Below are positions 17,542 through 57,114 of a DNA stretch of 64,000 nt, one piece after another. The notes beneath the pieces were generated by a model that saw only the letters and a program-made list of their open reading frames with translations, was not told the DNA's origin and made no database searches. Source of the DNA: a virus; the IMG/VR virus record IMGVR_UViG_3300012949_000670; one strand, written 5' to 3'. The position numbers were made by a program, and so were the translations under genes. Every line of letters starts with the position of its first letter. The first letter of the stretch is position 1.

Positions 17542-17544
17542 AAA

Positions 17545-21561: not shown

Positions 21562-21608
21562 TTTCATCTTACTTAAAGCATTCCATTCATTTGATAGAAG
21601 AGGTCTTT

Positions 21609-23696
21609 ATGACAAAAAATAACCCGTCCAATTTAATCAAATACAACCAGCTCTTTGCCGATTATCTTCGGAAGAAAATCGAAGAATTAGAAGGCGACCG
21701 AAGTGGCATGGATTGGGGCACGCTCATTATCGGTGACGATATGGATGTCCCTGCACCGGTAGAGACTGGTTTTTCTGATACACAGCCTGTTTCCGCTGAA
21801 CCAGAAGAAGCCCTGAGCTGGAGCGAACTGCAACGACAAAAAATGCGGGAGCTTTACAGCGATGACACCGAGGATGCCAGCAACGGCACTGGATATGTGA
21901 CAGCTCCGGTGGAACAGGACAGCTCGGATGAGGACGAAATGGGCTTTGCTGAACTCAGCGACGATGATTTCTCGGCGGAAGTCGAGGACGAAGGTGATGA
22001 GTCCGCCGGTGATGAGTTCGATTTCGATGAATATGAGGACGATGATACGGTAGTCGAACCGGATGAAGCCGAAGATGACGGCGATGGTCTGGACTTATCC
22101 GAACTCGATTTCGAAGATGAAATGCCTGCTGCATTGGCAAGCAAGGAACTGGAAGATGACGACCTGTTCGGGTTCTCTGCTGGCGAAGAAGAAATCGAAA
22201 AACTTCCGGTTGAAGAATTCGTTGACGAAACCGAGATTGACGATGAGACCAGCGATGGTGATGAATCGGATGAAGGCGAAACTGATTGGTTAGCGGAAAC
22301 CGATGGTGCCGATGAATCATCAGACGCGTTGGCGGCGGGGGCGGTGGAAGCTGCCGATTTGGGCATGGACACAGATAACTTATTCGAAGATGACGGCGAG
22401 GACGAAACCCCCGAACTCGATGATGAAGCTCTGTTCGCTGAAGACGAGGTAGAAGAAGACGGCGACGGACTTCCGAGTGACGACTCTTTTGGCTTGGAAG
22501 ATGAAACCGACAGTGAATATGAGACCGATGAAACAGGCGAATCGGACGGCGAAGACGAAGAAGTTTGGCTGGATGATGAAAGCGCCGACGATTCTGGCGA
22601 AAAATCAGATGACGATTGGCTTTTTGCCGATGACGAAGGCGTAGATGAAGATGCAGAATTCGACATAGAAAGCGATGACAATTCGGATTTTTACGACATC
22701 GATGAAGCCGGGGAAGAAGCTTCATCCGAGGATGACGAATGGTCTTTGGATGAAGAAACCGATGGCGAAAGCGGCATCGGTTGGGATACTAATGATGACG
22801 CTGACGGTGATGCGGACTTAGATTGGGATACTGAGACCAGTGAAGAAACAGAAGATTCCGGTTGGGATGCTGAAGAAACCAGCGAAGAAGCTGAAGAATT
22901 CGAGGACGCCGATTGGGATACCGAAACAGAAGAAGAAACTGAGGATGCCGATTGGAATATTGATGCTGGCGAGGCATCCGAAGACGACGATTGGAATGTC
23001 GAAACTGGTGAAGAAACCGAGGACACTGATTGGGATACCGAGCTTGCCGAAGAAGATGAAACCGCCGACTGGAACGCCGAATCGGATGATGAATTAGAAG
23101 ATTGGGGAATTGAAACCGAGGATACTGGCGAAGATAGCGATTGGGGCAGTGAAGATTCTTCTTCTGACGACGAGCTGGAATGGGATGCCGATGAAGAATC
23201 CGAAGAACTTACAGACGACCTTGTTTTCGCTGAGGATGAAGTCGAAGAAGTGAACAGCCAGGACTTCGGTGAATTTGATTCTGAAGAAGACGAATTTGCC
23301 TTCGAGGATGAAGTAGACGGCGGTGGCGAAGAACTGGTGGAAGACGCTGCCGATGACGAAATCCTCGACCTGCTGGACGATGAAGAATTGCCTGATGACG
23401 AAGCCGAATACACGGAAGATGGTGGCTGGTCAACGGAAAAACTGGAATCGGACGATGAAATCAGCGAAGATGACGATGATTTTTCGGTATGGCTGGAAGA
23501 AGATAATGGTGGTGAAGCGGATGAGTATCCCGAGGATGAAAATGCGGACACCGATGGAGACGATAGCATCGAATGGCTTTCAGAGGATGATGAATTAATT
23601 ACCGAAGATGAACTGTTCTCTGCCGGTGAAAACGCCGCTAATGACGACGATGACGACCTGATTGATTTGGACGGTCTGGATGACTTATTCAAATAA
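21609..23696 (+). CDS. Ultra-acidic low-complexity protein
   Basis: About 695 aa dominated by Asp/Glu, with periodic Trp. ATG at 21609 follows GAGG. Confidence 0.8.
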   Translation: MTKNNPSNLIKYNQLFADYLRKKIEELEGDRSGMDWGTLIIGDDMDVPAPVETGFSDTQPVSAEPEEALSWSELQRQKMRELYSDDTEDASNGTGYVTAPVEQDSSDEDEMGFAELSDDDFSAEVEDEGDESAGDEFDFDEYEDDDTVVEPDEAEDDGDGLDLSELDFEDEMPAALASKELEDDDLFGFSAGEEEIEKLPVEEFVDETEIDDETSDGDESDEGETDWLAETDGADESSDALAAGAVEAADLGMDTDNLFEDDGEDETPELDDEALFAEDEVEEDGDGLPSDDSFGLEDETDSEYETDETGESDGEDEEVWLDDESADDSGEKSDDDWLFADDEGVDEDAEFDIESDDNSDFYDIDEAGEEASSEDDEWSLDEETDGESGIGWDTNDDADGDADLDWDTETSEETEDSGWDAEETSEEAEEFEDADWDTETEEETEDADWNIDAGEASEDDDWNVETGEETEDTDWDTELAEEDETADWNAESDDELEDWGIETEDTGEDSDWGSEDSSSDDELEWDADEESEELTDDLVFAEDEVEEVNSQDFGEFDSEEDEFAFEDEVDGGGEELVEDAADDEILDLLDDEELPDDEAEYTEDGGWSTEKLESDDEISEDDDDFSVWLEEDNGGEADEYPEDENADTDGDDSIEWLSEDDELITEDELFSAGENAANDDDDDLIDLDGLDDLFK
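22737..23186 (+). repeat. Coding imperfect tandem repeat of about 39 bp (W-D/N-x-E...E-D-x-D)
   Basis: 12 Trp residues, mostly 13 residues apart. Confidence 0.8.
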
Positions 23697-23892
23697 TCAG
23701 GACGATATAAGACCGCTCATGATGTGGAACGGTACTTGAAAATCATGGCTCTTTCCAAAATCTTCCACCACATCTGGTGGAAGATTTTGGATAAAGGAAA
23801 TAGAAGCGGGGTAGGGCATCCCCACTTTATGAATGAAACGGAAGATGAGTGTTTTCAAAAAAAGGTGATTGAAAGGTAGGAGTAGAGATTTT

Positions 23893-26067
23893 ATGCCAAA
23901 CAACAAATTCCATCAGGTTCGGTACTTTCTGTGGGGAGCGGGCGGCTTCCTACTTATTGTTTCACTGGCGCTAATGGCATCTGCGATTACCAACCATATC
24001 AATGCAGAAGAACCCATTGGCTCGGGCGATATTTTCATGGCATTCCTTCTTTTGCTCATCACGATTGTTTTTTGGGGCGTGTTCCTGTACTTCCGGCGCG
24101 ACATTTATAGTTCATTTTCCAGCGCCAAAGCCTATGAGGTTTCCTTTTCCAGCAAAGATGGGGCGGTAGGGGTTGATATGGTGCGAGCAAATTATCTCGC
24201 CAAAAACCTGATGTATATGATGGCGCTCCAAAACCCCGGACGGCGTTTCTCCATCATTATTACGGACAAAAACAACCAGAAGCCAATTTTTATTTCTGAC
24301 TTCTCCAAAGAACAGATTGTTGCTTTTGTCGGCGCTGGTAAGGACTTTGTGAATTTGAACATCCGCCTGAAAGAAATTGATGTCCGGCATTTGCTGGGGG
24401 CAGGGAAATACTATTACTGCCTGCTGAAGGATGATACCTTCAGCAAAGATACTCCCAACATCAATGTATCTGACCTTATCAAGGACAGCGATGGGGCGAT
24501 TGAAGCTGTTTATATCAATATGTGCTACAAGCAAAATAAAAACGCCCAACTGCCTACTGGGAATATCGTAGTCCGGGTAAAGGCAGACGCACAGCCAAAA
24601 GGCGAAGGTCAGGACGCAAGACAGGACATCGTGGCAATTCTCAACAATCATCTGCACCATATTTCCATCGTCATGGTGTTGGGCAATCATCCTTTTGTCA
24701 AGCTCTATGACGGTCTGTATAAATCGCTGGTGAAAATCATCCTGTCCGATACCATCATCGAAGCGGTGGCAATTACGAAATTCTCGGCAGTTCGGAATTT
24801 CAACGAAGAATATCTGTCCCAGAAGAAGTGGGTGGTCGCCACGTCTGGCGAGAATTACAAGTCCCCGGTGTATTTGCGTAAAAACACGCTGGTTTTGCAG
24901 GATTATCCCGGTTTGAGCAATCCGGCAAATATCTGGATGAACACGATGATACAGATGGACAACCTTTCGTCCTTCATCGCTATTGACCTGGATGGCTCAA
25001 TTACCGCTACGGCGAAATCCATGAACGCCGACCTGATTATGAACCGGGATATTGCTATTATCAAAACACCGACAGAAGCTCCAGAGTACATTATCAATTT
25101 GCTGTCGCTGTGGCCGGGGGTCTCGGAAGAATATTCGCCGGAAATGGTCGGGGCTTTGCTTGTGTACTGCGAAAAATTTATTCGCTACATTTTCCCGTAT
25201 GAAGCGAAAGTACGGCAAGACCAGATGGCGGTCATCCTGCAAGGGTCAATTCTCACCATTCTGGAAAGCGGTACAGACTTCGATTTAGCGAACTTTATTG
25301 TCGCCATGAAGGATGTTCCCGCCCCAATTCAGTTCCTTAAAAATATTCACAAAATGATGCACATGCTCGTTTATGAAAACGAGGATTATCCGATGCTTTC
25401 TCGCATTTGGATAACCATGAACGAGTTGGGGCACAGCATCAATTACAACGCTACGCTTGCCAACCAGGAGGCTACAGCGGCAAATATGGGCGACCTGAAC
25501 ACCCTGCACAAGCGTCTGTCTCCCTTCCTGAGCGAACCGGGCAACTTGCTGATTTGCAACAGTGAAAGTCGCTACAGCCCGGCTGAATATCGGAACATCA
25601 TTTTTGACCTGTCATCATGGGATGGGAACATGGAATCGCTGACGCTAGAATATTTATTAGCAGGTGTTTTTTATACCCAATTCATCCGGCAGAAGTTCGG
25701 ACTGCCTCCAACCAGTCTGATGATTAGCGGTATCAGCAGACTTGGTTCGGAAGGTCAGGCCGTGGCAGTGGATATTTTGGCGGATTACATTCGTAGCACA
25801 GAATATTCCGATTTTAGCTGCCTGGTCGCAGACCGCAAAGCCATTCACGGGTACGTGAAAATGTTCTCTGCCAAATTGTTCAACGATATGTTTGTATTCC
25901 GATTACAGGAAGCGGAAGAAGTTCGCGACCTGCTGGCAAAAACGAAAACACTCGAAAGCGTTTACACCCTGCCGAAGCAAACGGGTTATATCTTCCGGCT
26001 GTCCAGCGATAAATCCCGCTTAATTCCGGGAAACGTTTACACCGCCCGTCCCCAAATTGTCAACTAA
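23893..26067 (+). CDS. VirD4/TraD-like membrane protein lacking Walker motifs
   Basis: Two N-terminal TM helices. IAIDLDGS resembles the vIDPhGd strand of coupling proteins, and LHKRLSPFL and IIFDLS also fit. No GxxGxGK. Confidence 0.4.
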   Translation: MPNNKFHQVRYFLWGAGGFLLIVSLALMASAITNHINAEEPIGSGDIFMAFLLLLITIVFWGVFLYFRRDIYSSFSSAKAYEVSFSSKDGAVGVDMVRANYLAKNLMYMMALQNPGRRFSIIITDKNNQKPIFISDFSKEQIVAFVGAGKDFVNLNIRLKEIDVRHLLGAGKYYYCLLKDDTFSKDTPNINVSDLIKDSDGAIEAVYINMCYKQNKNAQLPTGNIVVRVKADAQPKGEGQDARQDIVAILNNHLHHISIVMVLGNHPFVKLYDGLYKSLVKIILSDTIIEAVAITKFSAVRNFNEEYLSQKKWVVATSGENYKSPVYLRKNTLVLQDYPGLSNPANIWMNTMIQMDNLSSFIAIDLDGSITATAKSMNADLIMNRDIAIIKTPTEAPEYIINLLSLWPGVSEEYSPEMVGALLVYCEKFIRYIFPYEAKVRQDQMAVILQGSILTILESGTDFDLANFIVAMKDVPAPIQFLKNIHKMMHMLVYENEDYPMLSRIWITMNELGHSINYNATLANQEATAANMGDLNTLHKRLSPFLSEPGNLLICNSESRYSPAEYRNIIFDLSSWDGNMESLTLEYLLAGVFYTQFIRQKFGLPPTSLMISGISRLGSEGQAVAVDILADYIRSTEYSDFSCLVADRKAIHGYVKMFSAKLFNDMFVFRLQEAEEVRDLLAKTKTLESVYTLPKQTGYIFRLSSDKSRLIPGNVYTARPQIVN

Positions 26068-34999: not shown

Positions 35000-37900
35000 A
35001 TGTGCGATATTTGCATTAAGGAGCATGTACAACTCCACAACCATACTGATAAATCAAATCTTGACGGTGTCCCTCCGGTAGAAAAGCTGGTCGAGTACGC
35101 TAAGGAAATGGGCGCAGTTGCCGTTGGCGTCACCGAACACGGCAATACCCTTTCCATGTATCCCTTCCTCGATGCCTGCAAACGGATTGGCGGTATCAAT
35201 CCGGTCATTGGCGTTGAGGCTTATATGATTTATGGCCCGTCCTATTTGAAAAAGTCTAAGTCTACCATTTTCACCCCAGACGAAATTGTGTCTGACCCGC
35301 TGTATGAAGAAATCTACGGGAAACTTCCACTGAACGGGATGAAGATGCACAATCACGTTCTCCTGCTGGCGCTGAACCAGAAAGGTGTGGAGAACATTAA
35401 CAAGATTGTGACGTTCTCGCACCGGCACTTTTATAGCAAACCGTCTCTGACTCACGCGTTTTTGCGCGACCACTCGGACGGCATTTTAGCAAGTTCTGGC
35501 TGTCTGGCAGCGGAAATCCCAACTCTGCTTAAGTTGGGCTATAAAGATGAAGCGGAACAGGTGTTGCAGTGGTATTTGAACATCTTCAAAGACCGATTCT
35601 TTATCGAGTTCCAGCGTCACGACATCCCGGAACTGGACGATACTGTCAACAATGGTCTTTTGGAGCTGGTCAAAAAGTATAAGGTGCCGGTAATCGCCAC
35701 AAACGATATTCACTATCTGCGCCCGGAAGATGAAGAAATCCAGCGCCTTCTGTTGAAAATTGCGACTGGCAACCGCAAGCAGAAGGAAAACGAGATTGAC
35801 GATTCTGGGGATGCAATGGTTTTCAACGGGAGTGGCTACCACTACGCCTCGCCAGACGAGATGTTCGAGAAGATGAGCGTTTATGGTGAGGATATTGCGA
35901 AGGACATGCTGAATAATACCGTTGCCATCGGCAAGGATGCAAAATATAACCCGATGGTCGGTGTTGGTTTCCACATGCCAAAGACGCACCCTGAATTGAC
36001 CGATGAACAGCTCAACGAAAAGTTCCGTGAACTGGTCTACAAGGGCGCAAAAGAACGCTACGGCGACCCGCTCCCGCAGGAAGTAATTGACCGCATTGAA
36101 TACGAGCTGGAAGTCATCATCGGCAAGAACCTGGTCGGTTACTTCATGATTCTGATTGACCTGATTGATTTCGCCAGAAAGAAGGGACGCATCTGGAATA
36201 TTCGTGGTAGCGGTGCGGGCTGCTGCTGTTTGTACTGTCTGCAAATCAGTCATACAGACCCCATCCGTCACAACCTGCTGTTCGAGCGTTTCCTGAACCC
36301 GGCGCGTGTCAATATGCCAGATGTCGATATTGACATCCCCGATACCTTCCGTGAACCGCTGGCGAAGTACCTGCAACAGCGTTACGGTGTGGATAAGGTC
36401 GCCCGGATTATGGCTTACGGCAAAATTAAGCTGAAGCTGGCTATCCAGGTCTCTGCCCGTATGTATGGTTTGAATCCGCAGGACGTGATTGCCCTGAGTA
36501 AGGCTGTCCCGAACCACTACAGCACAGTTGAAGAACTGGAAGAAGACCAGAACTTCATGCATCTGGCGATGCAGTTCAAGGACTATAAGGCTATTTTGGA
36601 TACTGCCCGCAAGGTCGTGAACCGGGAAAAAACACTTAGTATGCACCCGGCCGGCGTGCTGATTTTCGATAAGAGCCTGGACGAATACACCGGGCTGCAC
36701 CGCCTGACCAAAGTTGACAATTCAGAAGGCGATGACAGCGACAGCGATGATGCTGGCAGCTTTGCATCCCTGCTCCCGGCGCAGATGGATATGGGGGCGG
36801 CGGAAATGGGCGGCTTCGTGAAGTTCGACTTTTTGGGCGTCCGAAACCTTACCATCATCGAAGAAACGCTTCGCTATATCAAGCAGTTGACCGGGAAAGA
36901 AATCTCCTGGTACAGCATTCCAACCGAATATAGCGATGCCTACCAGGTCTATTGGAAGGGTGATAACATCGGCATTTTCCAGGTCAGTTCCGACCCGATG
37001 CGGGACGTGTTCAAACGGCTACAGCCGACCAACCTTGACCACATCACTGCTGTTATTTCGCTGTACCGCCCTGGCCCGATGCAGTACATCGATGACTATA
37101 TCGCCATGCACAAGGGCGAGGAAGAAGTCAACTACCCGTCAAAGGTTCTAGAGCCTATCCTGAAAGAGACTTACGGCATCATGGTCTATCAGGAACAGAT
37201 TATTCAGGTTCTCAAGCTGGCGGGTTTCTCCGGTGGTGACGCTGACCTTATCCGGCGCGCTATCTCGAAAAAAAAGCTGAAGGAAATCGTCAAGCACAAA
37301 GAAGAATTTATTCAGGGCATGATGCAGAAGTATCAGATGCCTGCTGCTGAGTGCGAACAGATTTGGGCAGACATCGAGAAGTTCGCCGGTTATGGTTTCA
37401 ACAAGTCTCATGCCAGCAGTTATGCCGAGGTTTCGACCCGCACAGCGTGGCTGAAAACTCATTACCGGCTTGCCTACCTTCTGGCGTCTCTGAACGTGGA
37501 AATTAAGCATAACGACAAGGTGCTGACTTATGTTGGGGATGCCCGCAAGTCTGGTATCAAAATCCTGCCCCCGGATGTGAATAAGAGTGAAGAACTGTTC
37601 ACGGTGGAAGGCAACAACATCCGTTACGGTCTTGCAGCCATCAAGCACGTGGCTACGGACAGTCTGGCGGCGCTGGTTGCCGAGCGCAAGGCAAACGGCA
37701 ACTTCAAGAGTATTGAAGATTTGCTGAACCGGGTGAACATTAATACTTCAACATTTGCGGCGCTTCTCCTGTCTGGGGCGCTTGACAGCATCATCCTTGC
37801 GGGCAAAGAAGGCGAAATCGTCAATCCTCGCTTGGATGGCTACAATCAGGTGCCAAAGAAGTTCCAGTGTTCTATCCGTAACCTTGCCGGGTTTGAAAAG

Positions 37901-38446
37901 AAAGGTCGAAAGAAAGAGAACGATGTAGAAGTTGTGACCGATGACCTGGCAATTGAAGGGATTGAGTCTGAAGAACCAGCGCCGAAAAAGAAGAAGGCAA
38001 AGAAGGAAGAAGAACCCATCCCTGTGCCGCAGAATTTTGCAGACTGGCTGAGGGGCGAGGCTAACGTCATCGGCGGCATTTTCGTCTCAACGCATCCGAT
38101 TCTGCTGTACCTGAAGGGGCGCAAACTTTCGCAGTGCTTCAACGTAGACAAGCCAGTTATCTTTGCGGATGCTCTGGAAAAAATGCCCGTGAATACAGAG
38201 TGCTACGTACTTGGTATTATTGAGGACATCTATCATAAGCTGGACAAAAACTGGCTATGGGTGTCGGTTATCGGTTTCAATAAACCATCCTACCGGCTGG
38301 CAGCTTTCCAGAACGTCAACAAACTGCTTCCACTCGCCAATGTGGACTACCTGTGTCTGTTCCGGGTGTCCCGGGGGAACAAGGGTTTCACGGTGAGCGA
38401 AATTCGCTCCATCGGAAACATTTATTCTTCGACCACCTACATCTAA
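35000..38446 (+). CDS. dnaE: DNA polymerase III alpha subunit
   Basis: PHP domain LHNHT...TEHG...GVEAY...NDIHY. RGSGAG, FERFLNP, PDVDID, SMHPAG, KFDFLG, YQEQI, YGFNKSH. Confidence 0.95.
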   Translation: MCDICIKEHVQLHNHTDKSNLDGVPPVEKLVEYAKEMGAVAVGVTEHGNTLSMYPFLDACKRIGGINPVIGVEAYMIYGPSYLKKSKSTIFTPDEIVSDPLYEEIYGKLPLNGMKMHNHVLLLALNQKGVENINKIVTFSHRHFYSKPSLTHAFLRDHSDGILASSGCLAAEIPTLLKLGYKDEAEQVLQWYLNIFKDRFFIEFQRHDIPELDDTVNNGLLELVKKYKVPVIATNDIHYLRPEDEEIQRLLLKIATGNRKQKENEIDDSGDAMVFNGSGYHYASPDEMFEKMSVYGEDIAKDMLNNTVAIGKDAKYNPMVGVGFHMPKTHPELTDEQLNEKFRELVYKGAKERYGDPLPQEVIDRIEYELEVIIGKNLVGYFMILIDLIDFARKKGRIWNIRGSGAGCCCLYCLQISHTDPIRHNLLFERFLNPARVNMPDVDIDIPDTFREPLAKYLQQRYGVDKVARIMAYGKIKLKLAIQVSARMYGLNPQDVIALSKAVPNHYSTVEELEEDQNFMHLAMQFKDYKAILDTARKVVNREKTLSMHPAGVLIFDKSLDEYTGLHRLTKVDNSEGDDSDSDDAGSFASLLPAQMDMGAAEMGGFVKFDFLGVRNLTIIEETLRYIKQLTGKEISWYSIPTEYSDAYQVYWKGDNIGIFQVSSDPMRDVFKRLQPTNLDHITAVISLYRPGPMQYIDDYIAMHKGEEEVNYPSKVLEPILKETYGIMVYQEQIIQVLKLAGFSGGDADLIRRAISKKKLKEIVKHKEEFIQGMMQKYQMPAAECEQIWADIEKFAGYGFNKSHASSYAEVSTRTAWLKTHYRLAYLLASLNVEIKHNDKVLTYVGDARKSGIKILPPDVNKSEELFTVEGNNIRYGLAAIKHVATDSLAALVAERKANGNFKSIEDLLNRVNINTSTFAALLLSGALDSIILAGKEGEIVNPRLDGYNQVPKKFQCSIRNLAGFEKKGRKKENDVEVVTDDLAIEGIESEEPAPKKKKAKKEEEPIPVPQNFADWLRGEANVIGGIFVSTHPILLYLKGRKLSQCFNVDKPVIFADALEKMPVNTECYVLGIIEDIYHKLDKNWLWVSVIGFNKPSYRLAAFQNVNKLLPLANVDYLCLFRVSRGNKGFTVSEIRSIGNIYSSTTYI

Positions 38447-38460: not shown

Positions 38461-38502
38461 AAATCAAAAACCGGGGCGACATCCACACCCGGTTTTTGAT
38501 TT
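38461..38502. terminator. Bidirectional terminator between dnaE and rpsU
   Basis: AAATCAAAAACCGGG / CCCGGTTTTTGATTT. Confidence 0.8.
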
Positions 38503-38558
38503 CGAAGTCTCGATGCAGGATTCAAAAAACGGCTGTGGGCAGCCATTTTTTTGAATGA

Positions 38559-38738
38559 TTATTTGCGAGCCTTTTTGCTTTTGCGCCGCTGAATTCTCAG
38601 CCGGCGTTGTTCACTTTCGGAAACGAACCACCGTTTTTTCTTGACTTCCTGAAGGATATTACTTTTTGCAACCTGCTTCTTGAACCGCTTGTACAGGGAC
38701 TCGAACCCCTCTCCGTTTTTCCGCACGACTTTTATCAT
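38559..38738 (-). CDS. rpsU: 30S ribosomal protein S21
   Basis: MIKVVRKNGEGFESLYKRFKKQVAKSNILQEVKKKRWFVSESEQRR. RBS AAGGAG before the ATG at 38738. Confidence 0.9.
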   Translation of the reverse strand: MIKVVRKNGEGFESLYKRFKKQVAKSNILQEVKKKRWFVSESEQRRLRIQRRKSKKARK

Positions 38739-38794
38739 CCAGTTTACTCCTTGAGAACAAAACAAAATTTCCCTCCTTTAAGATTAGATGCAAT

Positions 38795-40900
38795 CTAGCG
38801 GCAAATCACAATATCCTGAATTGACCTGCCTTTAATTTCCGAAACGCCGACTTCTTCAAAGGCTTTCAGAATCTTTTCTCGTTCCGATTTGCTTTCCGCT
38901 ACGATATACAGCGGGGGCAGCCCGTACAGGGAGATGAAATTCTTAATCATAATTTCGCCGTTGACGTAGCCCATCAGCTTGTTGAGGTCGGTGGTCAGGG
39001 CGTCTTTGTTGAAGCGCCGGTCATTCGGAGAAATTGCCCCGAAGTGGTCGCTGGGGTAGCCGTAGATGGCTGAGTTGGCGAAAAATGTTTCCGCCGACCA
39101 GATAACCCCCAGTTCGGTACATTCCTTCAGATTTTTCTTTACAAACCCGAACAGATAGCCAGCGCCTCCGGTACTCATATCCTCTTCGGGGGACAGCGTT
39201 TTGCCGATGTTGGTGATACCTAACAGATAGCGCCGGTAGCTGCACCAGAACATGCCGCCATTTTGGATGATTTTTATAATATTGTCCCGGCTGCCGGTAA
39301 TCTTGCTGTAAACATAGCAGGACTTGAATTTGTCCTTCTGCTCGGCAATTTCCGAATCAATGCGGTTCCATGCGATAGCGCCGCTGCGTGTCTGCTTGCC
39401 TTCTCCCATAACGACAATGCCATCCATAATGCGCATGTATGCCGGATGGCTAATCATCTCTTTTGCCGACATGCCAATATATTTGGCGATGAAGTTCTGT
39501 AAGGCAGTTCGTCGGCGCAGCTTCACAATTTGCTGGCTATCCAGCAAAACTGACTGCGCCAGAGCGTCCACGTCACCCTGATAATTAAGTTTCGCCAGCT
39601 CTTGCACGAATTTTTCAAGCAGGTGATTGAGGGCGATTTCTTCTTCTTCTTCATCCCACAGCATGATTTGCTTGAACTCGGACGTATCGGTAAGCCCCAA
39701 TGCCCATGCCTGTTTCGCCAGATACAGGTACTCCGCATCTTCCTGTGAAGCGAGGGTCGCCACCAGATTGAGCTGGCGCATCCTGAAAACACCTTCCGTG
39801 ACTAGCAGGGTGCTGACCTGTTCCACCGCTGGCGAAATCAGTTCCAGTGTCCCCTGAAGGCTGAAGGCGGTCTTGTCTCCGTAAGGATAATAAATCGCCG
39901 TCCAGCCCTGATAGTTGTTGTTGTCGAGGTCAATTAGAAGCCCTTCAGATTTGAAGTTGTACTGCGCAAATTTGGACAGGTTTAGCTTCCAGTCGCGCAG
40001 GTCAAGGATGCCGTTGATTTTTTTATACGGCAGCCCTTCACCTTCATCGGCTTCCACCTTGACCGTTTTTTTCACGACTACGGTCTGTTCTTGTTCAACT
40101 TCAAATGGGTCAATCCACTGCGTTTTCTTCCATTGTTCGGGGACATCCGTACCTGTACAGACGGCAATACAATCTTCCAGGTCAAGTAGCGATTTCCAGT
40201 AGTGTTTCGCCATCTCTGCCAGTTCACCCGAACCGTCCACCAGTGGGGCAAGGAGTTCTTTGCAGTAGGCTGTATTATTGACCACCTTGTCGGTCAAAAC
40301 TCCATCCCGCACGCCGTTTGGAGAGCCAAAGTGGTAATTAAGTGACTTAGCCGCCTCAGTCAGCTTTTCGTAAATTTTGTGCTGAATGTCGAAATCCAGC
40401 CGTGCTTTTACGAGCTGCTTTTCAGTGACATTGATGGTCTTTTCTTTGATGTCGCCGTGCTCGGCAAGGGCGCTGATAACCCGGCTTTCGGCTGATGAAA
40501 TCACGTTTTTTAAAAAAGGCAAATCGGCGCGCACCTTCAGAAGCATCACCAAATGTTCTTTGCCGTGATGTTCACCGGAGGGGACGATTAAAGTCTGGCA
40601 CAGCAGGTCTTCAATGTCGTCCCCACCCAGCAGGATGCATCCGCCGTTGCGCTGATTGTTACGGGTATTGGTAATCAAGGCGTCTGTAATCGGGGTAAGC
40701 ACCTGACCGGTAGGCGGCAGGACAGCGCCTCGCAGGTCATTAATGCGAAGATGCTGGTTAATAAGTGGATAGCTTTCGCCGTACTGATTCACCAGTGGTT
40801 CATAAGACTGCCACGTGCAGTGACATTGTTGGTTGGTGCAGGCCAATTCGGTATCCAGCGGAAACCCGCAGGTCAGACAGCGAATACCCGTGATACTCAT
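38795..40900 (-). CDS. Large protein with an N-terminal Cys cluster and a putative C-terminal ADP-ribosyltransferase-like domain
   Basis: CLTC/CTNQQC at the N-terminus. C-terminal YSKIT...NIIKIIQNGG...GYLF...SD...GEIMIK pattern recalls DarT-like ART folds. Confidence 0.4.
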   Translation of the reverse strand: MSITGIRCLTCGFPLDTELACTNQQCHCTWQSYEPLVNQYGESYPLINQHLRINDLRGAVLPPTGQVLTPITDALITNTRNNQRNGGCILLGGDDIEDLLCQTLIVPSGEHHGKEHLVMLLKVRADLPFLKNVISSAESRVISALAEHGDIKEKTINVTEKQLVKARLDFDIQHKIYEKLTEAAKSLNYHFGSPNGVRDGVLTDKVVNNTAYCKELLAPLVDGSGELAEMAKHYWKSLLDLEDCIAVCTGTDVPEQWKKTQWIDPFEVEQEQTVVVKKTVKVEADEGEGLPYKKINGILDLRDWKLNLSKFAQYNFKSEGLLIDLDNNNYQGWTAIYYPYGDKTAFSLQGTLELISPAVEQVSTLLVTEGVFRMRQLNLVATLASQEDAEYLYLAKQAWALGLTDTSEFKQIMLWDEEEEEIALNHLLEKFVQELAKLNYQGDVDALAQSVLLDSQQIVKLRRRTALQNFIAKYIGMSAKEMISHPAYMRIMDGIVVMGEGKQTRSGAIAWNRIDSEIAEQKDKFKSCYVYSKITGSRDNIIKIIQNGGMFWCSYRRYLLGITNIGKTLSPEEDMSTGGAGYLFGFVKKNLKECTELGVIWSAETFFANSAIYGYPSDHFGAISPNDRRFNKDALTTDLNKLMGYVNGEIMIKNFISLYGLPPLYIVAESKSEREKILKAFEEVGVSEIKGRSIQDIVICR

Positions 40901-40915: not shown

Positions 40916-41611
40916 CTAGTCGTCTAAAAGCTCGGATTCGTTGATTTTGGTCAGCGTGCCAAAAACAAAAACATATTCTCGCTTCATCGGAACAGCATTT
41001 ACCGCTAGCTTTTCATCAATCAACGAAGACAGGAAATTGACCTGGCTTTTGTTATAGGAAGCAATTTCCTCAGGGGCTTTTTCGTCAATTACCGGCAGCA
41101 TTTCTTTCAGCTCGGTCTGGATAAGGGTGAGATGGTCGTAATTCTGGCTTACGGTGATAGTGCCGCTCAGCCCACAATACGAAACCAGCCGTTCCAGAGC
41201 TTGATAAATATTGCCGTATTCAAAATTGTTATTGGCATGGTGTAGATAATAGGTGCCATCCTCGTTGTGATACAGGCTAATGTATTCCATCGGGGATGCT
41301 GGGACATAGATTTTGTCCACATCAATCCGGTAAACGAGCAAAGGAATTTCTGATGCCTGTGCGTAAGGCGCAAGTGACTGGATAACGAGCTGTGCCATCT
41401 GCCGGTCGAAGGCGACAAAAACGGCCATGCCGATTTCGTTCTTGTAGAACGGCGGGGTTTGATACAAGGTCGAAACCCGCTTACCCTGTTCTTCGGTCAT
41501 CAGGCTTCCCATCGAAATAAGTTCTTGAAATTCGGCGTATTCTGCCGCGCCAATTTTTTTATTGATTAGTGAAGCCGGAAAAAAACCATCAAACCTGATT
41601 TCGTAGGACAT
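40916..41611 (-). CDS. Hypothetical protein
   Basis: 231 aa, ending 15 nt before the ART-like gene. Preceded by TTGCTATCAT. Confidence 0.65.
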   Translation of the reverse strand: MSYEIRFDGFFPASLINKKIGAAEYAEFQELISMGSLMTEEQGKRVSTLYQTPPFYKNEIGMAVFVAFDRQMAQLVIQSLAPYAQASEIPLLVYRIDVDKIYVPASPMEYISLYHNEDGTYYLHHANNNFEYGNIYQALERLVSYCGLSGTITVSQNYDHLTLIQTELKEMLPVIDEKAPEEIASYNKSQVNFLSSLIDEKLAVNAVPMKREYVFVFGTLTKINESELLDD

Positions 41612-43546: not shown

Positions 43547-44299
43547 ATGATTAATCAAATTATTCTAGGTGACTGCACAAAAATGCTGTTTGAAATGCCG
43601 GAAAATTTTGTGGATTTAGGCATTACCAGCCCGCCATTTAATGTCGGTGTTTCTTATAAATCCAGCAAAAATGACCTTGTTTCGGTGGACGAATATTGTG
43701 CTTTTGCAGCAGAGGTGATGACTGGAATGTTCCGCGTGCTGAAAGATGGCGGCAGGTTTTGTCTAGAAATCGGCGGCAGCGGGCGGGATTTGCCTTTGTC
43801 GTGGTTATGGCAAGATGCGGCTTATAAGGCTGGTTTCAAGCTGCATACAGAGATTGTCATTGACCACCGCGCCACAAATCCAACCGCATGGGGGAGTTGG
43901 TTGAAGTCGGATAACGTGCGAGTTATCCCGAATTTCCGCCACCTGTATGTTTTTTATAAAGGTACGTCCACAAAGCGCGGCGCTGTACCGTGCGACATCA
44001 GCCGGGATGAATTTGTCGAATGGACAAAGGGCAGGTGGCAGATTAACTGGTCGAAGGGCGCAAACAAAAAAGAGCATCCTGCAAAATTCCCGGAAGAACT
44101 GCCCACACGGTGCATGAAACTGTTTGGGCATCCCGGAGACCTTGTACTTGACCCGTTTATCGGTTCCGGCACCACAGCGGTAGTCGCCTGCAAATTAGGC
44201 AGAAACTATTTGGGGATTGAACTTTCGCCGGACTATTACGCAATTGCGGTTAACAAAGTAGAAAAAGTCAAACAAAAATTAGGACAAAGCAACAAGTAA
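43547..44299 (+). CDS. Orphan N4/N6 DNA methyltransferase (beta class)
   Basis: ITSPPFN precedes HPAKFP and LVLDPFIGSGTT. Confidence 0.9.
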   Translation: MINQIILGDCTKMLFEMPENFVDLGITSPPFNVGVSYKSSKNDLVSVDEYCAFAAEVMTGMFRVLKDGGRFCLEIGGSGRDLPLSWLWQDAAYKAGFKLHTEIVIDHRATNPTAWGSWLKSDNVRVIPNFRHLYVFYKGTSTKRGAVPCDISRDEFVEWTKGRWQINWSKGANKKEHPAKFPEELPTRCMKLFGHPGDLVLDPFIGSGTTAVVACKLGRNYLGIELSPDYYAIAVNKVEKVKQKLGQSNK

Positions 44300-44331
44300 T
44301 CAAAAAGCGCAGGCGACTGCGCTTTTTGATT
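44298..44331. terminator. Bidirectional terminator
   Basis: AATCAAAAAGCGCAG-GCGA-CTGCGCTTTTTGATT. Confidence 0.8.
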
Positions 44332-44335
44332 TGCA

Positions 44336-44664
44336 TTATTCTTCTTCAGTTTCTTCCACCATCTCGTATTTGTATCGCTGGATGACAGTTTGTTTGACGC
44401 CCTGGTCTTATGTTCTTTCACTGTCCCCGTCACGATATAGGATTGTCCGCATTCCAGTTCACCACGGCTAATCCAGACAAACACATTTCCTTCCTCATCT
44501 TCCAGCTCGTGCAAATAGCGTTCAATTGGATAAAGGAACTTATCGGCCTTCACCATTTCGGAATGTTCGATTGATATTTGTAAGACGCACAACATCAATA
44601 AAAATGATTTTTTGAAGCGGCTGGCAGGTACAGATATTGTTTTTTTGGGGTGTTTGACCGTCAT
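44336..44664 (-). pseudogene. Frameshifted phage-type OB-fold protein
   Basis: YLHELEDEEGNVFVWIS...VTGTVKEH continues in the -1 frame as DQGVKQTVIQR...EEE*, which stops right at the terminator. Confidence 0.6.
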
Positions 44665-44701
44665 TCTCCTATAAACATTTCAAATATGGGAGCTTGACAA
44701 G

Positions 44702-46303
44702 ATGAGTCCGAAGATTATTTTTGTTACCGGTGGTGTGGTGAGTTCGGTAGGGAAGGGGGTTGCAGCCTCGTCTATTGCGAAACTGCTTCGCCAGCGGGGA
44801 TATAAAGTGTGTCTCCAAAAACTTGACCCTTATCTTAATGTAGACCCCGGAACGATGAGTCCATATCAACACGGCGAAGTTTTTGTCCTTGATGACGGTG
44901 CAGAAACCGATTTGGATTTAGGGCATTACGAGCGCTTGGGCGGCATCAGTTTGAACCGTTATTCATCGGTGTCCACCGGGCAGATTTATGAAGAAGTGCT
45001 TTCCAAAGAACGGCGGGGGGATTTTTTAGGCCGTACCATTCAAATCATCCCTCATATTACGAATGAAATCAAACGCCGCATTCGCATGGCGATTGAAACA
45101 ACCGGCGCAGATATTGGCATTGTCGAAATCGGCGGCACGGTTGGAGATATTGAATCTGAACCGTATCTGGAAGCGATTCGCCAGTTGCGTTTTGAACTTG
45201 GGCAGGAAAATACTTTTTATTGTCATCTGACATGGCTTCCATTCATCGGTGCGACCAGAGAACTCAAAACAAAGCCGACGCAGCATTCCGTCAGGATGCT
45301 GCGTTCAGTCGGTATCAGCCCGGACGCGTTGATTGCCCGTGCAGATTATTCCATTTCCAAAGAACTGCTGGACAAAATCAGCCAGTTTTGTGACGTTGAA
45401 CGCCGGGCGGTAATCGGTCTGGAAACCACGCAGTATATTTACGAAGTCCCCTTGATTATTGAAAAATCTGGTCTTGCCGATTACATCGTAGAAAAAATGA
45501 AGCTCCCCGGTTTTATCAAGCCCGACCTGTCGAATTGGGAACGGCTGGTTTCCTTGCTGAAACAGGATAAACCCAAAGCCCCGGTCGCACTGGTAGGTAA
45601 ATACGTCGAATTGCACGACTCCTATATTAGCGTGGCTGAGGCGTTATGCCATGCGGGGCTGGCAAATGGTATCGAAGTGGATATTCACTGGATTAGCGCC
45701 GTAGATTTGGAAAATGGCAAGTGTTTAGATGAGTTAGAAGAATGCGCCGGAATTATTATTCCGGGCGGCTTCGGTAATCGCGGTGTGGACGGGAAAATGC
45801 TGGCAATTGAGTACGCCCGTGAAAATAAAGTCCCGCTTCTCGGACTATGCTTAGGGATGCAGTTAATTTGCGTAGAATATGCCCGCAACGTACTTGGTCT
45901 TACTGAAGCCAATTCGACAGAATTTAATCCCAATACACCGTACCCGGTTATTGACCTGATGGAAGAACAAAAGATGGTGATGAATCTCGGCGGAACGATG
46001 CGGCTGGGTAGTTTCGACTGTAAATTGGTTTCCGGTTCAAAAGCCTACTGCGCATATGGTCGGGAAATTGTCCGGGAACGTCATCGCCACCGGTTTGAAT
46101 TAAATAACGAATACCGCCCATTGCTGGAAGAAAATGGGCTAAAGGTAACAGGCGCAAGCCCAAATGGGGTGCTGGCAGAAATCGTCGAAGTGGAAAATCA
46201 TCCTTTTTTGGTTGGTACGCAGTTCCATCCCGAATTTAAATCAAAGCTAGACGAACCGCACCCAATTTTTGTGGCTTTCGTGAAAAGCGTCATCGGCGCA
46301 TAA
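44702..46303 (+). CDS. pyrG: CTP synthase
   Basis: FVTGGVVSSVGKG, KLDPYLNVDPGTMSPYQHGEVFV, GLCLGMQ, RERHRHR, QFHPEF. Confidence 0.97.
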   Translation: MSPKIIFVTGGVVSSVGKGVAASSIAKLLRQRGYKVCLQKLDPYLNVDPGTMSPYQHGEVFVLDDGAETDLDLGHYERLGGISLNRYSSVSTGQIYEEVLSKERRGDFLGRTIQIIPHITNEIKRRIRMAIETTGADIGIVEIGGTVGDIESEPYLEAIRQLRFELGQENTFYCHLTWLPFIGATRELKTKPTQHSVRMLRSVGISPDALIARADYSISKELLDKISQFCDVERRAVIGLETTQYIYEVPLIIEKSGLADYIVEKMKLPGFIKPDLSNWERLVSLLKQDKPKAPVALVGKYVELHDSYISVAEALCHAGLANGIEVDIHWISAVDLENGKCLDELEECAGIIIPGGFGNRGVDGKMLAIEYARENKVPLLGLCLGMQLICVEYARNVLGLTEANSTEFNPNTPYPVIDLMEEQKMVMNLGGTMRLGSFDCKLVSGSKAYCAYGREIVRERHRHRFELNNEYRPLLEENGLKVTGASPNGVLAEIVEVENHPFLVGTQFHPEFKSKLDEPHPIFVAFVKSVIGA

Positions 46304-46603: not shown

Positions 46604-48220
46604 ATGCCCCCTAGAAAGAAAAAGGCGGTGGTTTCCGCCGAATTAATTGAACAATTTGCGGATGAACTCGCTCAAATTGAACCTGATAACCTTGTGCGAG
46701 AAACGCCAGAAACGGTTGTTGGAAGCACAGAACCAGCCCCCAGACGAGGAAGAAAGCCAAAACAGATAAAAGTAGAAGCTGCGCCGGAACTTGAGGATGC
46801 AGCGCCTACGCCTGTTGTGACAACGGTCAACCGGGCGGATGATGTTGCGTTAGCTGTTCAACAAGCAATTTCCAGCGTCCTGCCGACTGCGCTGGAACCG
46901 CTTATGAAGCCGCCGAAAGGACGCGGCCGGCCACAAAAAATTGAGCCAGAACGGATGGTTGCCGCGGTATCCAATGCCGTGACGACCGCCGTGACGACCG
47001 CAGTCGCACAGGTAATTCGGGATGTTCGCCCAACTGGTTCAACCGATGAATATCCTGTGCTGGAACCGGTTTCGCTGGCACAATCTTTGGTTGACCCTGT
47101 GACGGAAGTTGTTTCTGAAACTGTTTCTGCACCGACAACAGTTAAGCGGGGGAGAGGCCGGCCAAAAAAGGGTGAATCTCCTGTTCAATCCCTGTTAGTT
47201 GAAGCCCCACCGATACCAACGACAAGAAACAAAAAGGCGGATATTCAGCCGGTTGTTGTCGCAATTGAACAGCCTGTAGCTGAACCAGCGAAGCCGCGTA
47301 GAAGCAAGGAACAAAGAAAGGCTGTTAGTGTTCCCGTTCAGGAAGAGGCCTCGCAGTCGGAAGTAGTCGTTGGCGAAGCTATCGCAGATGCTCCGTCTAT
47401 TGCCATCCCGGAAGCAGCCGAAGAAGCCGTCAAAGCTCCATCAAAGCGTGGACGGCGGAAAAAGACGGTCGAAGCTGCTGCGCCGGTCGAGGTTACAGCG
47501 GAAGCACCGGTCTCCGAAGCACCTGTTGTTGAAGATGTAGCGCCGGTGAAAGCGGAAGCACCCGTTGTGAAAGCCCCGGCGAAAAAGCGCGGCCGTCCAA
47601 AGAAGGCGGCTGCCGCTGAAGCTGCCGAGCCGCAAGCTGTCGTGGTCGAGGCAGAAGTCCCGGTCGCTGAAACTCCGGTCGAAGAACCTGCAAAGCCGAA
47701 ACGCGGCAGGAAACCCAAAGCAGAATCTAAGGCCGCCGCCGAAGCGAAACCGTCCAAACGGGGGCGGAAACCGAAAGCTGAAGTAGCAGCAGAACCGGCG
47801 ACAGCCGAGGTCGAACTAACTGTGGGCGCTGCCGAGCCAGTGGAAGATGCCGTCAAACAACCTGTAAAGCGCAAGCGTGGAAGACCCAAAAAGGTGGCGG
47901 CTGAACCTACTGCCGAAGTTGAACAGACACCGACCGCCGTAGTTGGAGAAGCGCTCGCAACACCTGAAGTTGAAGAACAACCGGCACCAGCTCGCAAGCG
48001 TGGCAGAAAAAAGGCTGCGCCCGCTGAAGAAACAGTGGCGGAAGCACCGGCTGCTGAAGTCGAAGCCGTTGCTCAGCCCGTTGTCGAACAACCTGCGCCG
48101 CGCAAACGTGGCCGACCAAAAAAGGTACAGGTCGAAGAAGCCGTAGCGGCGGTTGAAGAACAGCCCAGCGAAGAAGCTACTCCGAAGCGTAAGCGCGGTC
48201 GACCAAAGAAAAGCGAGTAG
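46604..48220 (+). CDS. Multi-AT-hook, HMGA-like disordered DNA-binding protein
   Basis: 11 RGR(P/K/R) motifs, 6 of them RGRP, in E/A/V/P-rich spacers. Confidence 0.75.
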   Translation: MPPRKKKAVVSAELIEQFADELAQIEPDNLVRETPETVVGSTEPAPRRGRKPKQIKVEAAPELEDAAPTPVVTTVNRADDVALAVQQAISSVLPTALEPLMKPPKGRGRPQKIEPERMVAAVSNAVTTAVTTAVAQVIRDVRPTGSTDEYPVLEPVSLAQSLVDPVTEVVSETVSAPTTVKRGRGRPKKGESPVQSLLVEAPPIPTTRNKKADIQPVVVAIEQPVAEPAKPRRSKEQRKAVSVPVQEEASQSEVVVGEAIADAPSIAIPEAAEEAVKAPSKRGRRKKTVEAAAPVEVTAEAPVSEAPVVEDVAPVKAEAPVVKAPAKKRGRPKKAAAAEAAEPQAVVVEAEVPVAETPVEEPAKPKRGRKPKAESKAAAEAKPSKRGRKPKAEVAAEPATAEVELTVGAAEPVEDAVKQPVKRKRGRPKKVAAEPTAEVEQTPTAVVGEALATPEVEEQPAPARKRGRKKAAPAEETVAEAPAAEVEAVAQPVVEQPAPRKRGRPKKVQVEEAVAAVEEQPSEEATPKRKRGRPKKSE

Positions 48221-48337
48221 TTCATTCCTTGATTGCACGAACCGGGGAACGACTTTGTTCCCCGGTTTTTGTGTTTAATTTCTTGCAATTCGTCATAAAA
48301 ATAGTGAATTTGTTCTATTTATATTGAGGGGGACTGG

Positions 48338-49540
48338 ATGAATTGTAGGTATTGTACTGAAAAAACGAATGACCAAACCCGGCAAGAAGGTGGTATTGAA
48401 GTCCAGCGGGGGACAGAGATTAACGTACTCAATTTGAAAAATCCAATTTTGGAACGCAATCATTTTCCAGATGAATGGAACAGGTATATTGATTGGTTGG
48501 ATGCAAACTCTGTTACTTATTCTGGAATGCACACCATCAAAGCTGTCATGATGAAACGCAAGGCGGCGCACCGGGATTATTCATCGGCGGATAGCTGGCT
48601 CAGTTTATTGCGGCAGTGGTCGGATAGATACGCCAAAGAAACTGGAAATCCAAAGCTGTCCTTTATGGAACTGGCGCAGCTAGCCATGTATTTTGAAAAG
48701 CGTATGCTTGATGAAATTGAAAAAGGGGACGAATCAGAGTTTTTCAAGCTCCAAAATCAATCTTCACCAGCACCGTCTCAGCTCGCTATGCAAAACGTCC
48801 AAACATCACAAATGGTAAGGAATGTCGTGTTATCAAAGCTAAAAGGACAGCTCAACGAAAAGCCTCGCATTTTAGAACCGACTGCTGGAGATAGCGCACT
48901 GGCAAAGTGGCTGGTTTCCGATTATCCAAAAGCGAAGCTGGATGCCATTGATGCCGATAAAAACCGACAAAATGAACTGCGTCAAATGGGATACAATCCG
49001 GCAGGGGAAGATTTTCTTTCTTTTATCCCGCACAAAGCCTACGATGCAGTCGTAATGAATACAGCCGGAAATCCGCAAACCTATGCAGCGCAGGTTGTCC
49101 ACGGATTTGACATTCTCGCTCCGTCCGGCACGCTGGTGGCGATTGTGCCTGAAAATATTCAAGACCTGACTAAAAGCATTTCGGCGGGGAAAATGAACGC
49201 CGGAGATACGGAACGGCTACGGAAGTTTATTTACCAGTACGGGAAATTAGAACGTCTGATAACCGGCGAAAACGAAAGTCATTACATTCTTGTATTGACC
49301 AAACCCAAATGTCATCGTGGGCGCAGAAAAAAAGGTGAGGTTCGGGAAATTACGCTGGTCGCAAAGGGAACAGGGAAACGAGGCCGGCCGCGTATTCGCC
49401 CACTCCCGGATGAAAATCAGCCCAAACGGAAACGAGGCCGCCCGCGCATCCATCCACTTCCAGATGAAAATCAACCGAAGCGCAAGCGGGGGCGACCACC
49501 GGGCAGCAAAAACAAAAAGGTCGCTGCATTTGAAGCCTGA
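48338..49540 (+). CDS. Degenerate class I methyltransferase-like protein with an AT-hook tail
   Basis: ILEPTAGDSALA, GEDFL, DAVVMNTAG (in place of NPPF), GTLVAIVP. Three C-terminal RGRP motifs. Confidence 0.65.
   Translation: MNCRYCTEKTNDQTRQEGGIEVQRGTEINVLNLKNPILERNHFPDEWNRYIDWLDANSVTYSGMHTIKAVMMKRKAAHRDYSSADSWLSLLRQWSDRYAKETGNPKLSFMELAQLAMYFEKRMLDEIEKGDESEFFKLQNQSSPAPSQLAMQNVQTSQMVRNVVLSKLKGQLNEKPRILEPTAGDSALAKWLVSDYPKAKLDAIDADKNRQNELRQMGYNPAGEDFLSFIPHKAYDAVVMNTAGNPQTYAAQVVHGFDILAPSGTLVAIVPENIQDLTKSISAGKMNAGDTERLRKFIYQYGKLERLITGENESHYILVLTKPKCHRGRRKKGEVREITLVAKGTGKRGRPRIRPLPDENQPKRKRGRPRIHPLPDENQPKRKRGRPPGSKNKKVAAFEA
49379..49486 (+). repeat. Two 54-bp coding repeats (RGRPRI[R/H]PLPDENQPKRK)
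   Basis: Identical peptide apart from R/H, with synonymous nucleotide divergence. Confidence 0.85.
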
Positions 49541-49579
49541 TATAACCAAAAAGCCAGTTGTCTGGCTTTTTGGTTATAT
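49540..49579. terminator. Bidirectional terminator
   Basis: TATAACCAAAAAGCCAG / CTGGCTTTTTGGTTATA. Confidence 0.8.
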
Positions 49580-49643
49580 TTTTGACTAATTCAATGGGTT
49601 TTCGTGGTTTATATCCGGCAAACCAGAAGAGCGATGTTGCTTT

Positions 49644-50276
49644 TTATTGGTGCTTTAGGACGTGGAATTCATTTAATGGATAGTAAACCAGCAGGCCTTT
49701 GCCAATAATCTTTTTGGCGGATACCGAACCAAACGAATGGGAATCGGCTGAAAAATTCCGATTATCCCCGAGGACGAAATAATACCCTTCAGGAACGAAC
49801 CATTCACCGGCATAGCTTATCTCTTCTGGAAGATAGGCTTCTGGATAAAGAACCCCGTTGATATATACTGCTCCATTTTCGATTTTGATATTCTCACCAG
49901 GAAGTCCAATAATCCGTTTGACCAGCGCCTTTTCGGAAGTTTGCGGGTGGTGCAGAACAACTATATCGCCACGTTCAAACCTTTTTTCTCGAAATGCCAT
50001 CTTGTCTACCAAAAGCAACTGCCCGTTTTTTAGGGTAGGGGACATACTTTCGCCGTAGACTTCCACTCGCACCGTAAATACATTGGCCGCGAGATAAAAC
50101 AAAACCAGAATCAAAATCGTCGGAAGCCATTCCTTTAAAAAATTTGCCAGACGTTTTTTGAAAGGGATTGGCTCTGGTTGAAGTTCCGACTCGTTTTTCA
50201 CAGTTGTTTCTATCATCTCGATTTTATCCTGCCTATCTATATCAAAATTTGTTTTTACCAATCGTTCTTTCGTCAT
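49644..50276 (-). CDS. lepB: Signal peptidase I (S26)
   Basis: GESMSPTL, GDIVV, LVKRIIGLPG, GDNRNFSADS. Confidence 0.93.
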   Translation of the reverse strand: MTKERLVKTNFDIDRQDKIEMIETTVKNESELQPEPIPFKKRLANFLKEWLPTILILVLFYLAANVFTVRVEVYGESMSPTLKNGQLLLVDKMAFREKRFERGDIVVLHHPQTSEKALVKRIIGLPGENIKIENGAVYINGVLYPEAYLPEEISYAGEWFVPEGYYFVLGDNRNFSADSHSFGSVSAKKIIGKGLLVYYPLNEFHVLKHQ

Positions 50277-57088: not shown

Positions 57089-57114
57089 ATAGCTTTTCTC
57101 TCAGATTTTCTGTT

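Follow-up and report, generated by a model that had tools for sequence, protein, structure and literature searches.

The window analysed here, a stretch of 64,000 nucleotides from the IMG/VR record IMGVR_UViG_3300012949_000670, carries a genuine and intact gene for ribosomal protein bS21 (rpsU), the match to the S21 family being far beyond chance. The explanation that we favour as a whole, and hold with somewhat more confidence than doubt, is that the gene encodes the conserved bS21 of a giant conjugative-type element of Anaerolineae, and that its product likely joins the host 30S subunit and alters translation initiation. The main interest lies in the conserved linkage of S21 and dnaE, the fast evolution of the protein, and the tRNA array and tmRNA which accompany it. 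The features at and next to the gene are the following.

38559-38738, minus strand: rpsU coding sequence, 59-aa bS21, from translation, with its TAA stop at 38559-38561
38747-38752, minus strand: Shine-Dalgarno (SD) sequence AAGGAG, read from the sequence, 8 nt 5' of the rpsU ATG
38783-38793, minus strand: predicted promoter-like motif TTGCATCTAAT, from the sequence, within the 56-nt gap 3' of the TAG stop of the upstream ORF
38523-38552, no strand assigned: bidirectional intrinsic-terminator hairpin, stem 38531-38544 with A and T runs on either side, 14 nt past the rpsU stop
38474-38490, no strand assigned: second hairpin with T runs, positioned past the dnaE stop
35000-38446, plus strand: dnaE, 1148-aa Pol III alpha (Pfam), convergent with rpsU and without an OB domain

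Translation of the minus strand gave a frame of 59 codons plus TAA with no internal stop, and the product matched Pfam Ribosomal_S21 (PF01165) with an E-value of 1.1e-10 and 41.5 bits (cut-off 27) and the NCBIfam equivalog model TIGR00030 with 38.7 bits (cut-off 28.95), which confirms that the gene is intact, as the initial annotation had stated. The two further claims made there about its layout, that rpsU has a strong ribosome-binding site of its own and that it converges on dnaE, were also found to be correct, with AAGGAG placed 8 nt ahead of the ATG and with 112 nt separating the gene from the convergent 1148-aa DnaE frame. The product is highly basic (22 Lys and Arg residues in 59, or 37%), and its residues 3-56 align to ribosome-bound S21 chains in the PDB (6eri, 6fxc, 5nd8 and E. 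coli entries), placing it in the bS21 size class of about 55-75 aa, basic and alignable nearly end to end with the structural chains. The identical protein is encoded by 21 metagenome contigs and a K33E variant by further ones, K33E being also the only change in the coding sequence among eight strain contigs; at least one of the metagenome records is labelled as a biogas fermenter.

The AAGGAG was kept in all eight of the strain contigs. The TTGCATCTAAT motif 5' of rpsU is similar to TTGCTATCAT, a motif which recurs in the window with copies approximately 32-39 nt ahead of several other starts, and it may represent a promoter-like motif of rpsU. On the other side, the 112-nt gap between rpsU and dnaE contains both hairpin terminators. 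Together, the promoter-like motif, the strong SD and the intrinsic terminator give rpsU the appearance of an expression unit complete in itself. A further SD-like run, AAAGGAGGG, is located at 38762-38770 on the minus strand, about 24-32 nt 5' of the rpsU ATG, and reads AAAGGATGG in one strain; by comparison with the rpsU leader in Flavobacteria, it might be part of a regulatory leader.

The close relatives of the neighbouring DnaE allowed the gene order to be followed beyond the strains. Just three non-identical ones were identified, with 60%, 45% and 46% identity, all of them metagenomic and none from NCBI genomes. DnaE word patterns detected no relatives in GTDB genomes or IMG/VR, and a metagenome scan with the DnaE alignment, which was saturated by cellular DnaE, returned no relatives of the element. 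The family lacks the OB domain (tRNA_anti, PF01336), which is present in essentially all of the cellular DnaE matches listed. For the relative with 60% identity, on a 111-kb contig, the neighbourhood is preserved in full, in the order M23 peptidase, dnaE, a small ORF, S21, a 696-aa ORF, a 231-aa ORF, DnaJ, an AT-hook protein and lepB; for the relative with 45% identity, S21 is located two genes past dnaE; and the contig of the third stops 1.6 kb past dnaE. TIGR00030 was passed by all three element S21s, those of the two relatives scoring 29.5 and 35.5, and the SD-like sequences GAGGAG and TAGGAG are found ahead of the S21 genes in the two diverged relatives. No dnaE-like gene was found near rpsU in the flanks examined at 80 Anaerolineae loci (0 of 80), which makes the linkage between S21 and dnaE specific to the elements. 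Comparison of these loci indicates that rpsU is a conserved core gene of the element family.

Among themselves, the element S21s have 35-51% identity, and against host S21s a median of 41-46%, in comparison to a median of 71% within the host S21s, and on these sequence identities the element proteins evolve much faster than their host counterparts. Phylogeny of S21 against host rpsU had been proposed in the initial annotation as a check. The maximum-likelihood tree (188 rows and 65 columns, with long branches) gave no resolution, and in the quick tree the three element S21s did not cluster. Their monophyly was not rejected: a tree constrained to hold the three together had an AU p of 0.79 and a better score than the quick free search, values to which long-branch effects apply. 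The core residues E10, L15, R18, F19, L29 and R46 are kept in all element copies, and the C-terminal tail is shortened and divergent. The simplest reading is that the ancestor of the element family probably captured an Anaerolineae-like rpsU a single time, long ago, and that the gene then diverged rapidly while selection continued to favour an S21-like protein.

The affinity to Anaerolineae was observed for three genes. An exhaustive HMMER search with the element S21 found no close relative, the best match having an E-value of 1.8e-8 and 55-60% identity, and the best matches have the signature KRWFVS.SEQRR in common with it. A scan of GTDB for this signature returned almost only Anaerolineae/Chloroflexota, with 48-61% identity and with chromosomal contigs of 0.8-3.6 Mb included, in a search that used the narrow S21 alignment (A2) and is hence biased toward KRWFVS, the broad alignment (A1) being too diverse for a pattern scan. 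The element DnaE is 36-39% identical to Anaerolineae DnaE, which is the next step below its own small family, and the nearest named relatives of the element PyrG are those of Leptolinea, Longilinea and Anaerolineales, with 62-65% identity. The likely hosts are thus Anaerolineae (Chloroflexota), an assignment made from the best matches of S21, DnaE and PyrG and not from physical linkage. Within this class, 199 of 201 sampled genomes contain rpsU, mostly as a single copy, as do all five large Anaerolineae genomes. If the host belongs to Anaerolineae, the element copy is almost certainly an additional one, and we regard it as probably an extra copy beside the host's own; that the window should hold the host's only chromosomal rpsU, the finding which the initial annotation named as fatal to its proposal, is unlikely given this near-universal occurrence. 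Approximately 12% (about one in eight) of the sampled Anaerolineae genomes have two or three S21 matches (G002, G010, G013, G035, G117 and others). A chromosome of CPR/Patescibacteria was also considered as the source of the window, prompted by a T4SS_pilin match and the small housekeeping set, and it was dropped since DnaE and PyrG are closer to Anaerolineae and core cell genes are missing.

To describe the carrier, approximately 124 kb of contiguous sequence was assembled by exact-protein walking outward from the window on long contigs with the same genes, namely JGI SAHD_10000128 (399,701 bp) and ENA k141_34440 (295,894 bp). The sequence sampled in this way amounts to about one third of the longest contig and holds about 125 genes. 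An identical pyrG is also present on a contig of 367 kb. Three parts of the window bear on the nature of the replicon.

10455-26067, plus strand: Tad-like and type IV secretion-like block (Pfam: CpaE-like, SAF/CpaB-like, CpaF-like ATPase, VirB4/TraG-like ATPase)
363-755, strand not given: T4SS_pilin match, 25.8 bits against a cut-off of 26.6
54272-63064, minus strand: gyrA, gyrB, a recJ-like gene and dnaG (Pfam), part of the element's own replication set

The genes in the approximately 124 kb belong to the following several categories: (i) replication and repair: dnaA, dnaE, dnaG, gyrA, gyrB, recJ-like, RecG-like and RecD2-like helicases, RNase H, and an RNase T-type exonuclease; (ii) partition and secretion: ParA-like, a Tad cluster with Flp pilin, VirB4/TraG-like ATPases, a T4SS-type pilin, and M23/SLT wall hydrolases; (iii) conflict-type genes: two to three ART-PolyVal genes, several orphan DNA methyltransferases, and type I-D CRISPR-Cas; (iv) others: a two-component pair, thyA, DHFR (folA), pyrG, a deoxynucleotidase, lepB, HSP20 and a DnaJ-domain protein. 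Most element genes have no Pfam match, so that ORFans are many. The Tad ATPase match in the window is clear by Pfam; the 705-aa ATPase at 19444-21561 has weak TraG P-loop, TrwB and AAA_10 matches, each below its cut-off; and no relaxase was identified among the element genes scanned. The element has its own initiator and partition genes, DnaA and ParA-like, and the essential cell core is absent from the approximately 124 kb. In this sequence, no rRNA, second ribosomal protein, aminoacyl-tRNA synthetase or translation factor was found, and the gene tables contain no RNA polymerase subunit, transporter, cell-wall, division, energy or other core metabolic gene.

Several of these genes are located outside the window. 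A complete DnaA (DnaA_N, Bac_DnaA and Bac_DnaA_C) is encoded at L106:4266-5618 on the minus strand, about 30 kb past the window end; beyond it, on the opposite strand, three ORFs (408, 374 and 318 aa) match no Pfam family and might encode clamp or RecF-type proteins in divergent form. A CRISPR-Cas type I-D-like set with Cas6, a Cas3-like helicase, Csc1, Csc2 and a 1014-aa large subunit is present at L105:14177-22006 and L188:10001-17827. Genes for thymidylate synthase, DHFR, 5'-deoxynucleotidase and a 50-aa Flp/Fap pilin are distributed over L188:3201-6107, L189:7493-8077 and L190:2715-2867, and this Flp gene is the pilin that is apparently missing from the Tad cluster of the window.

Taken with the Tad/T4SS-like block, the ART-PolyVal genes and the orphan methylases, the lack of any other ribosomal or core-cell gene in the approximately 124 kb supports the earlier description of the replicon as a conjugative-type element, and it is because of this lack that the replicon reads as such an element and not as a host chromosome. 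Most likely the element is giant, with a size of at least 400 kb, and conjugative-type, and it is probably extrachromosomal. The element reading is weakened by the fact that the gene content is that of approximately 124 kb, in which dnaA, tmRNA, tRNAs, lepB and a full replisome would equally be expected of a cell. These same genes, together with the cell-like dnaE, dnaG, gyrAB, pyrG, thyA and folA, fit the alternative of a chromosomal window, from an undescribed Chloroflexota relative that branches deeply and has a reduced genome, with rpsU as its sole ordinary copy; the agreement of three genes on Anaerolineae at deep divergence would also be in keeping with it, and ribosomal operons could be located in the remainder of the at least 400 kb. 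We consider this highly improbable. A cell would be expected to show at least ten translation proteins among about 125 genes, and S21 is the lone ribosomal protein here, which makes a chromosome unlikely; aminoacyl-tRNA synthetases, translation factors, RNA polymerase, rRNA and genes of envelope, division, transport and energy are all absent from the sampled sequence, and ORFans are in the majority. Genes such as the ART-PolyVal ones and the orphan methylases are characteristic of conjugative elements and phages, the tRNAs are grouped in a single redundant array that varies in copy number from strain to strain, and the DnaE family, with no OB domain unlike its cellular relatives, is carried by none of the NCBI genomes or MAGs.

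A huge phage or phage-plasmid, in which rpsU would be another phage-encoded bS21, is the other possible carrier, since S21, the tRNA array, tmRNA, CRISPR-Cas and nucleotide-metabolism genes resemble the repertoire of huge phages (PMC7162821) and no other ribosomal protein has been reported in phages as often as S21 (PMC6375957, PMC9723584). This is also very unlikely, as no capsid, terminase, portal or tail family was found across the approximately 124 kb (window ORFs by Pfam and PHROGs, flanks by Pfam tables), and T4SS-like and Tad genes are present instead. The DnaE word patterns match nothing in IMG/VR, the element S21 has no match in 50,697 GenBank phage records at an E-value of 1e-3, and the best IMG/VR S21s, with 44-50% identity and an E-value of 1e-8, are more distant than Anaerolineae S21s and share nothing with the element in their neighbourhoods. 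The remaining alternative accepts the conjugative-type element and concerns the role of the gene, which may, without any ribosome re-programming, be a captured spare copy that adds S21 dosage, or may work off the ribosome, for instance by binding RNA or by regulating element genes. In favour of this, the gene is very short and evolves fast, its C-terminal tail is shortened and has diverged, the two to three rpsU matches in approximately 12% of the sampled Anaerolineae genomes suggest that extra copies are tolerated, and off-ribosome roles of bS21 have been proposed (PMC12054373, PMC10931766). We rate this as unlikely, though clearly less so than the two other carriers, because the gene stays by dnaE even in an element whose DnaE is just 45% identical, and because all copies pass the equivalog model and keep the core residues, which speaks for selection acting on a fold that is S21-like and binds rRNA; a spare copy of recent origin would moreover be far closer to the host protein.

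Returning to the giant conjugative-type element, its translation items in the approximately 124 kb are S21, one tRNA array and tmRNA. The tRNA array is located approximately 12 kb past the 64-kb end of the window, is tight and flanked by ART-PolyVal genes, and varies in copy number among strains, with seven tRNAs at L100:14072-14677 and nine at L106:15507-16289. Its members are Leu-GAG, Leu-CAG (duplicated in some strains), Leu-TAA, Leu-TAG, Leu-CAA, two copies of Tyr-GTA, and Cys-GCA, all of which are long-arm (class II) save Cys. The full-length tmRNA at L188:7907-8276 on the minus strand scored 126.6 bits with Rfam, and its tag ANNRASFAALPLAV is unusual, ending in ...LPLAV and not in the common ALAA.

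The proposal that the element S21 acts on initiation draws on what is known of bS21 in other bacteria. bS21 is positioned on the 30S platform against the anti-SD/mRNA helix and its loss disturbs initiation (PMC9723584); in Bacteroidia, bS21 helps sequester the anti-SD (PMC7797042, PMC9976891); and in Francisella, alternative bS21 paralogues alter which mRNAs are translated well (PMC9578407). The initial annotation had further noted many AAGGAG/GAGGAG sites, and a count of SD sequences is consistent with the proposal. Of 42 genes in the window, 74% have an SD 4-mer ahead of them (control 20%), as do 71% of 41 genes at other loci of the elements. The corresponding share is 50% for 356 genes from Anaerolineae loci (control 28%), the Fisher p values being 0.005 (74% versus 50%) and 0.0002. 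The count is a crude one, in which starts were called roughly from ORFs and the hosts are a mixture of 80 species.

In the mechanism that we propose, the ancestor of the element family would have captured an Anaerolineae-like rpsU once and kept it beside dnaE. By analogy with the systems above, the element S21 would then most likely enter the 30S subunits of the host, either in addition to the host bS21 or in its place, and from its position near the anti-SD helix it would alter initiation in favour of the element's largely SD-led mRNAs. Both the entry into the ribosome and the bias of initiation are suggested by this analogy. The element S21, the tRNA array and the tmRNA may act jointly as a translation-support module. 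A bolder version, to which we give only tentative credence, is that giant Anaerolineae conjugative elements keep a private translation module, made of a fast-evolving bS21 by dnaE, a tmRNA with an atypical tag and Leu/Tyr/Cys tRNAs, which builds element-tuned ribosomes. If true, this would be a case of plasmid-driven ribosome specialisation, a strategy which has so far been discussed for viruses alone.

S21 genes on phages are well described (PMC6375957, PMC7162821, PMC9723584; Mizuno et al. 2019 and Chen et al. 2022 being PMC6375957 and PMC9723584, respectively). Similar to those systems, a mobile element here carries its own diverged bS21 with the S21 core kept and with tRNAs and tmRNA alongside, and the action proposed for it, replacement of the host bS21 near the anti-SD, is the same, as a proposal in this case. 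One difference is the carrier, in which no phage hallmark genes were seen and which has T4SS-like/Tad genes and a DnaA-DnaE replisome. Another is that the element S21 has no kinship to GenBank phages at an E-value of 1e-3 and is closer to Anaerolineae than to the S21s in IMG/VR. The hosts of the described phage bS21s are Bacteroidota, which do not use SD, whereas the element and its putative host both use it. The element S21 had no match in PLSDB plasmids either, that is, no close plasmid-borne relative in that collection. bS21 is the ribosomal protein which mobile elements most often acquire, and the described cases are phages; here it appears as a core gene of a giant conjugative-type element, which would extend the mobile-element S21 theme from phages to a plasmid-like element and suggests that ribosome remodelling in the host may also be a strategy of long-term resident elements of the plasmid-like kind.

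Three other systems bear comparison. The Methanoperedens plasmid HMp_v5 carries the ribosomal protein uL16 and tRNAs, and its host seems to have no uL16 gene of its own (PMC9674854). A ribosomal protein gene with tRNAs on a large plasmid-like element is common to both, but HMp_v5 is archaeal and its protein is uL16, while the likely host class in the present case nearly always has its own rpsU, so the copy is probably additional. In Francisella tularensis, bS21 paralogues give heterogeneous ribosomes that favour particular mRNAs (PMC9578407, PMC13374519), an alternative bS21 within one cell with the kind of effect that we propose for the element S21; unlike the latter, those paralogues are chromosomal and the organism's own, and are not on a mobile element. 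The Enterobacteriaceae megaplasmids have T4SS, many ORFans, many tRNAs and RNase H domains, and are regarded as extrachromosomal elements (ECEs) since they are without rRNA, ribosomal proteins and core metabolism (bioRxiv 10.1101/2025.09.30.679422). They resemble the element as giant conjugative-type replicons with T4SS-like genes, ORFans, tRNAs and RNase H, and differ from it in that they are reported without ribosomal proteins, where S21 is present here, and in host phylum, with no sequence similarity detected between the two. No publication was found on a giant element of such a kind in Chloroflexota. The element adds to the evidence for very large replisome-bearing extrachromosomal elements in Chloroflexota-rich anaerobic reactors, and the pair of host bS21 and element bS21, about 46% identical, provides a testable system for start-site selection in an SD-using phylum.

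The genes upstream of rpsU and further along the window were also examined, and the following three are referred to below.

38795-40900, minus strand: 701-aa orphan ORF, directly 5' of rpsU on the same strand, the gene earlier called 'ART-like'
40916-41611, minus strand: 231-aa orphan ORF, the first in a possible gene string of 231-aa ORF, 701-aa ORF and rpsU, its position being conserved in L093
44702-46303, plus strand: pyrG (CTP synthase, Pfam), variable cargo

The placement of the 'ART-like' gene immediately 5' of rpsU holds, and an ORF of 696 aa is likewise found beside S21 in the relative with 60% DnaE identity; the ART label itself is at present a weak lead. Searches of Pfam, NCBIfam and PHROGs gave no family for the 701-aa ORF, and those of Pfam and NCBIfam none for the 231-aa ORF. 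Two weak Atlas leads were obtained for the 701-aa ORF, a structural one to DarT (residues 510-701, with a target-side TM of 0.60) and a feature-based one to Arr (0.79, where 0.9 is needed for anything above a lead). The AlphaFold model of its C-terminal domain had a pLDDT of 38.7 and was unusable, and just two weak matches to this domain were found in 401 Anaerolineae genomes, both in MAGs. The clear ART-PolyVal genes are all outside the window. The segment from a methyltransferase to pyrG (43547-46303) is variable cargo, being missing from the syntenic region L093:17623-19906 of the relative with 60% DnaE identity, and one strain contig (L003:4394-7018) is without the methyltransferase of this segment. 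A 400-aa ORF at 48338-49540 has PHROG matches down to an E-value of 3e-11 and a domain of approximately 100 aa in common with very large phage proteins that also bear DNA methyltransferase domains, a polyvalent-protein-type module. At about 48000-50000 of the window, the cumulative GC skew reaches a peak and the gene orientation shifts from mostly plus to mostly minus, a switch which could be a replication landmark, or merely a transcription-strand effect.
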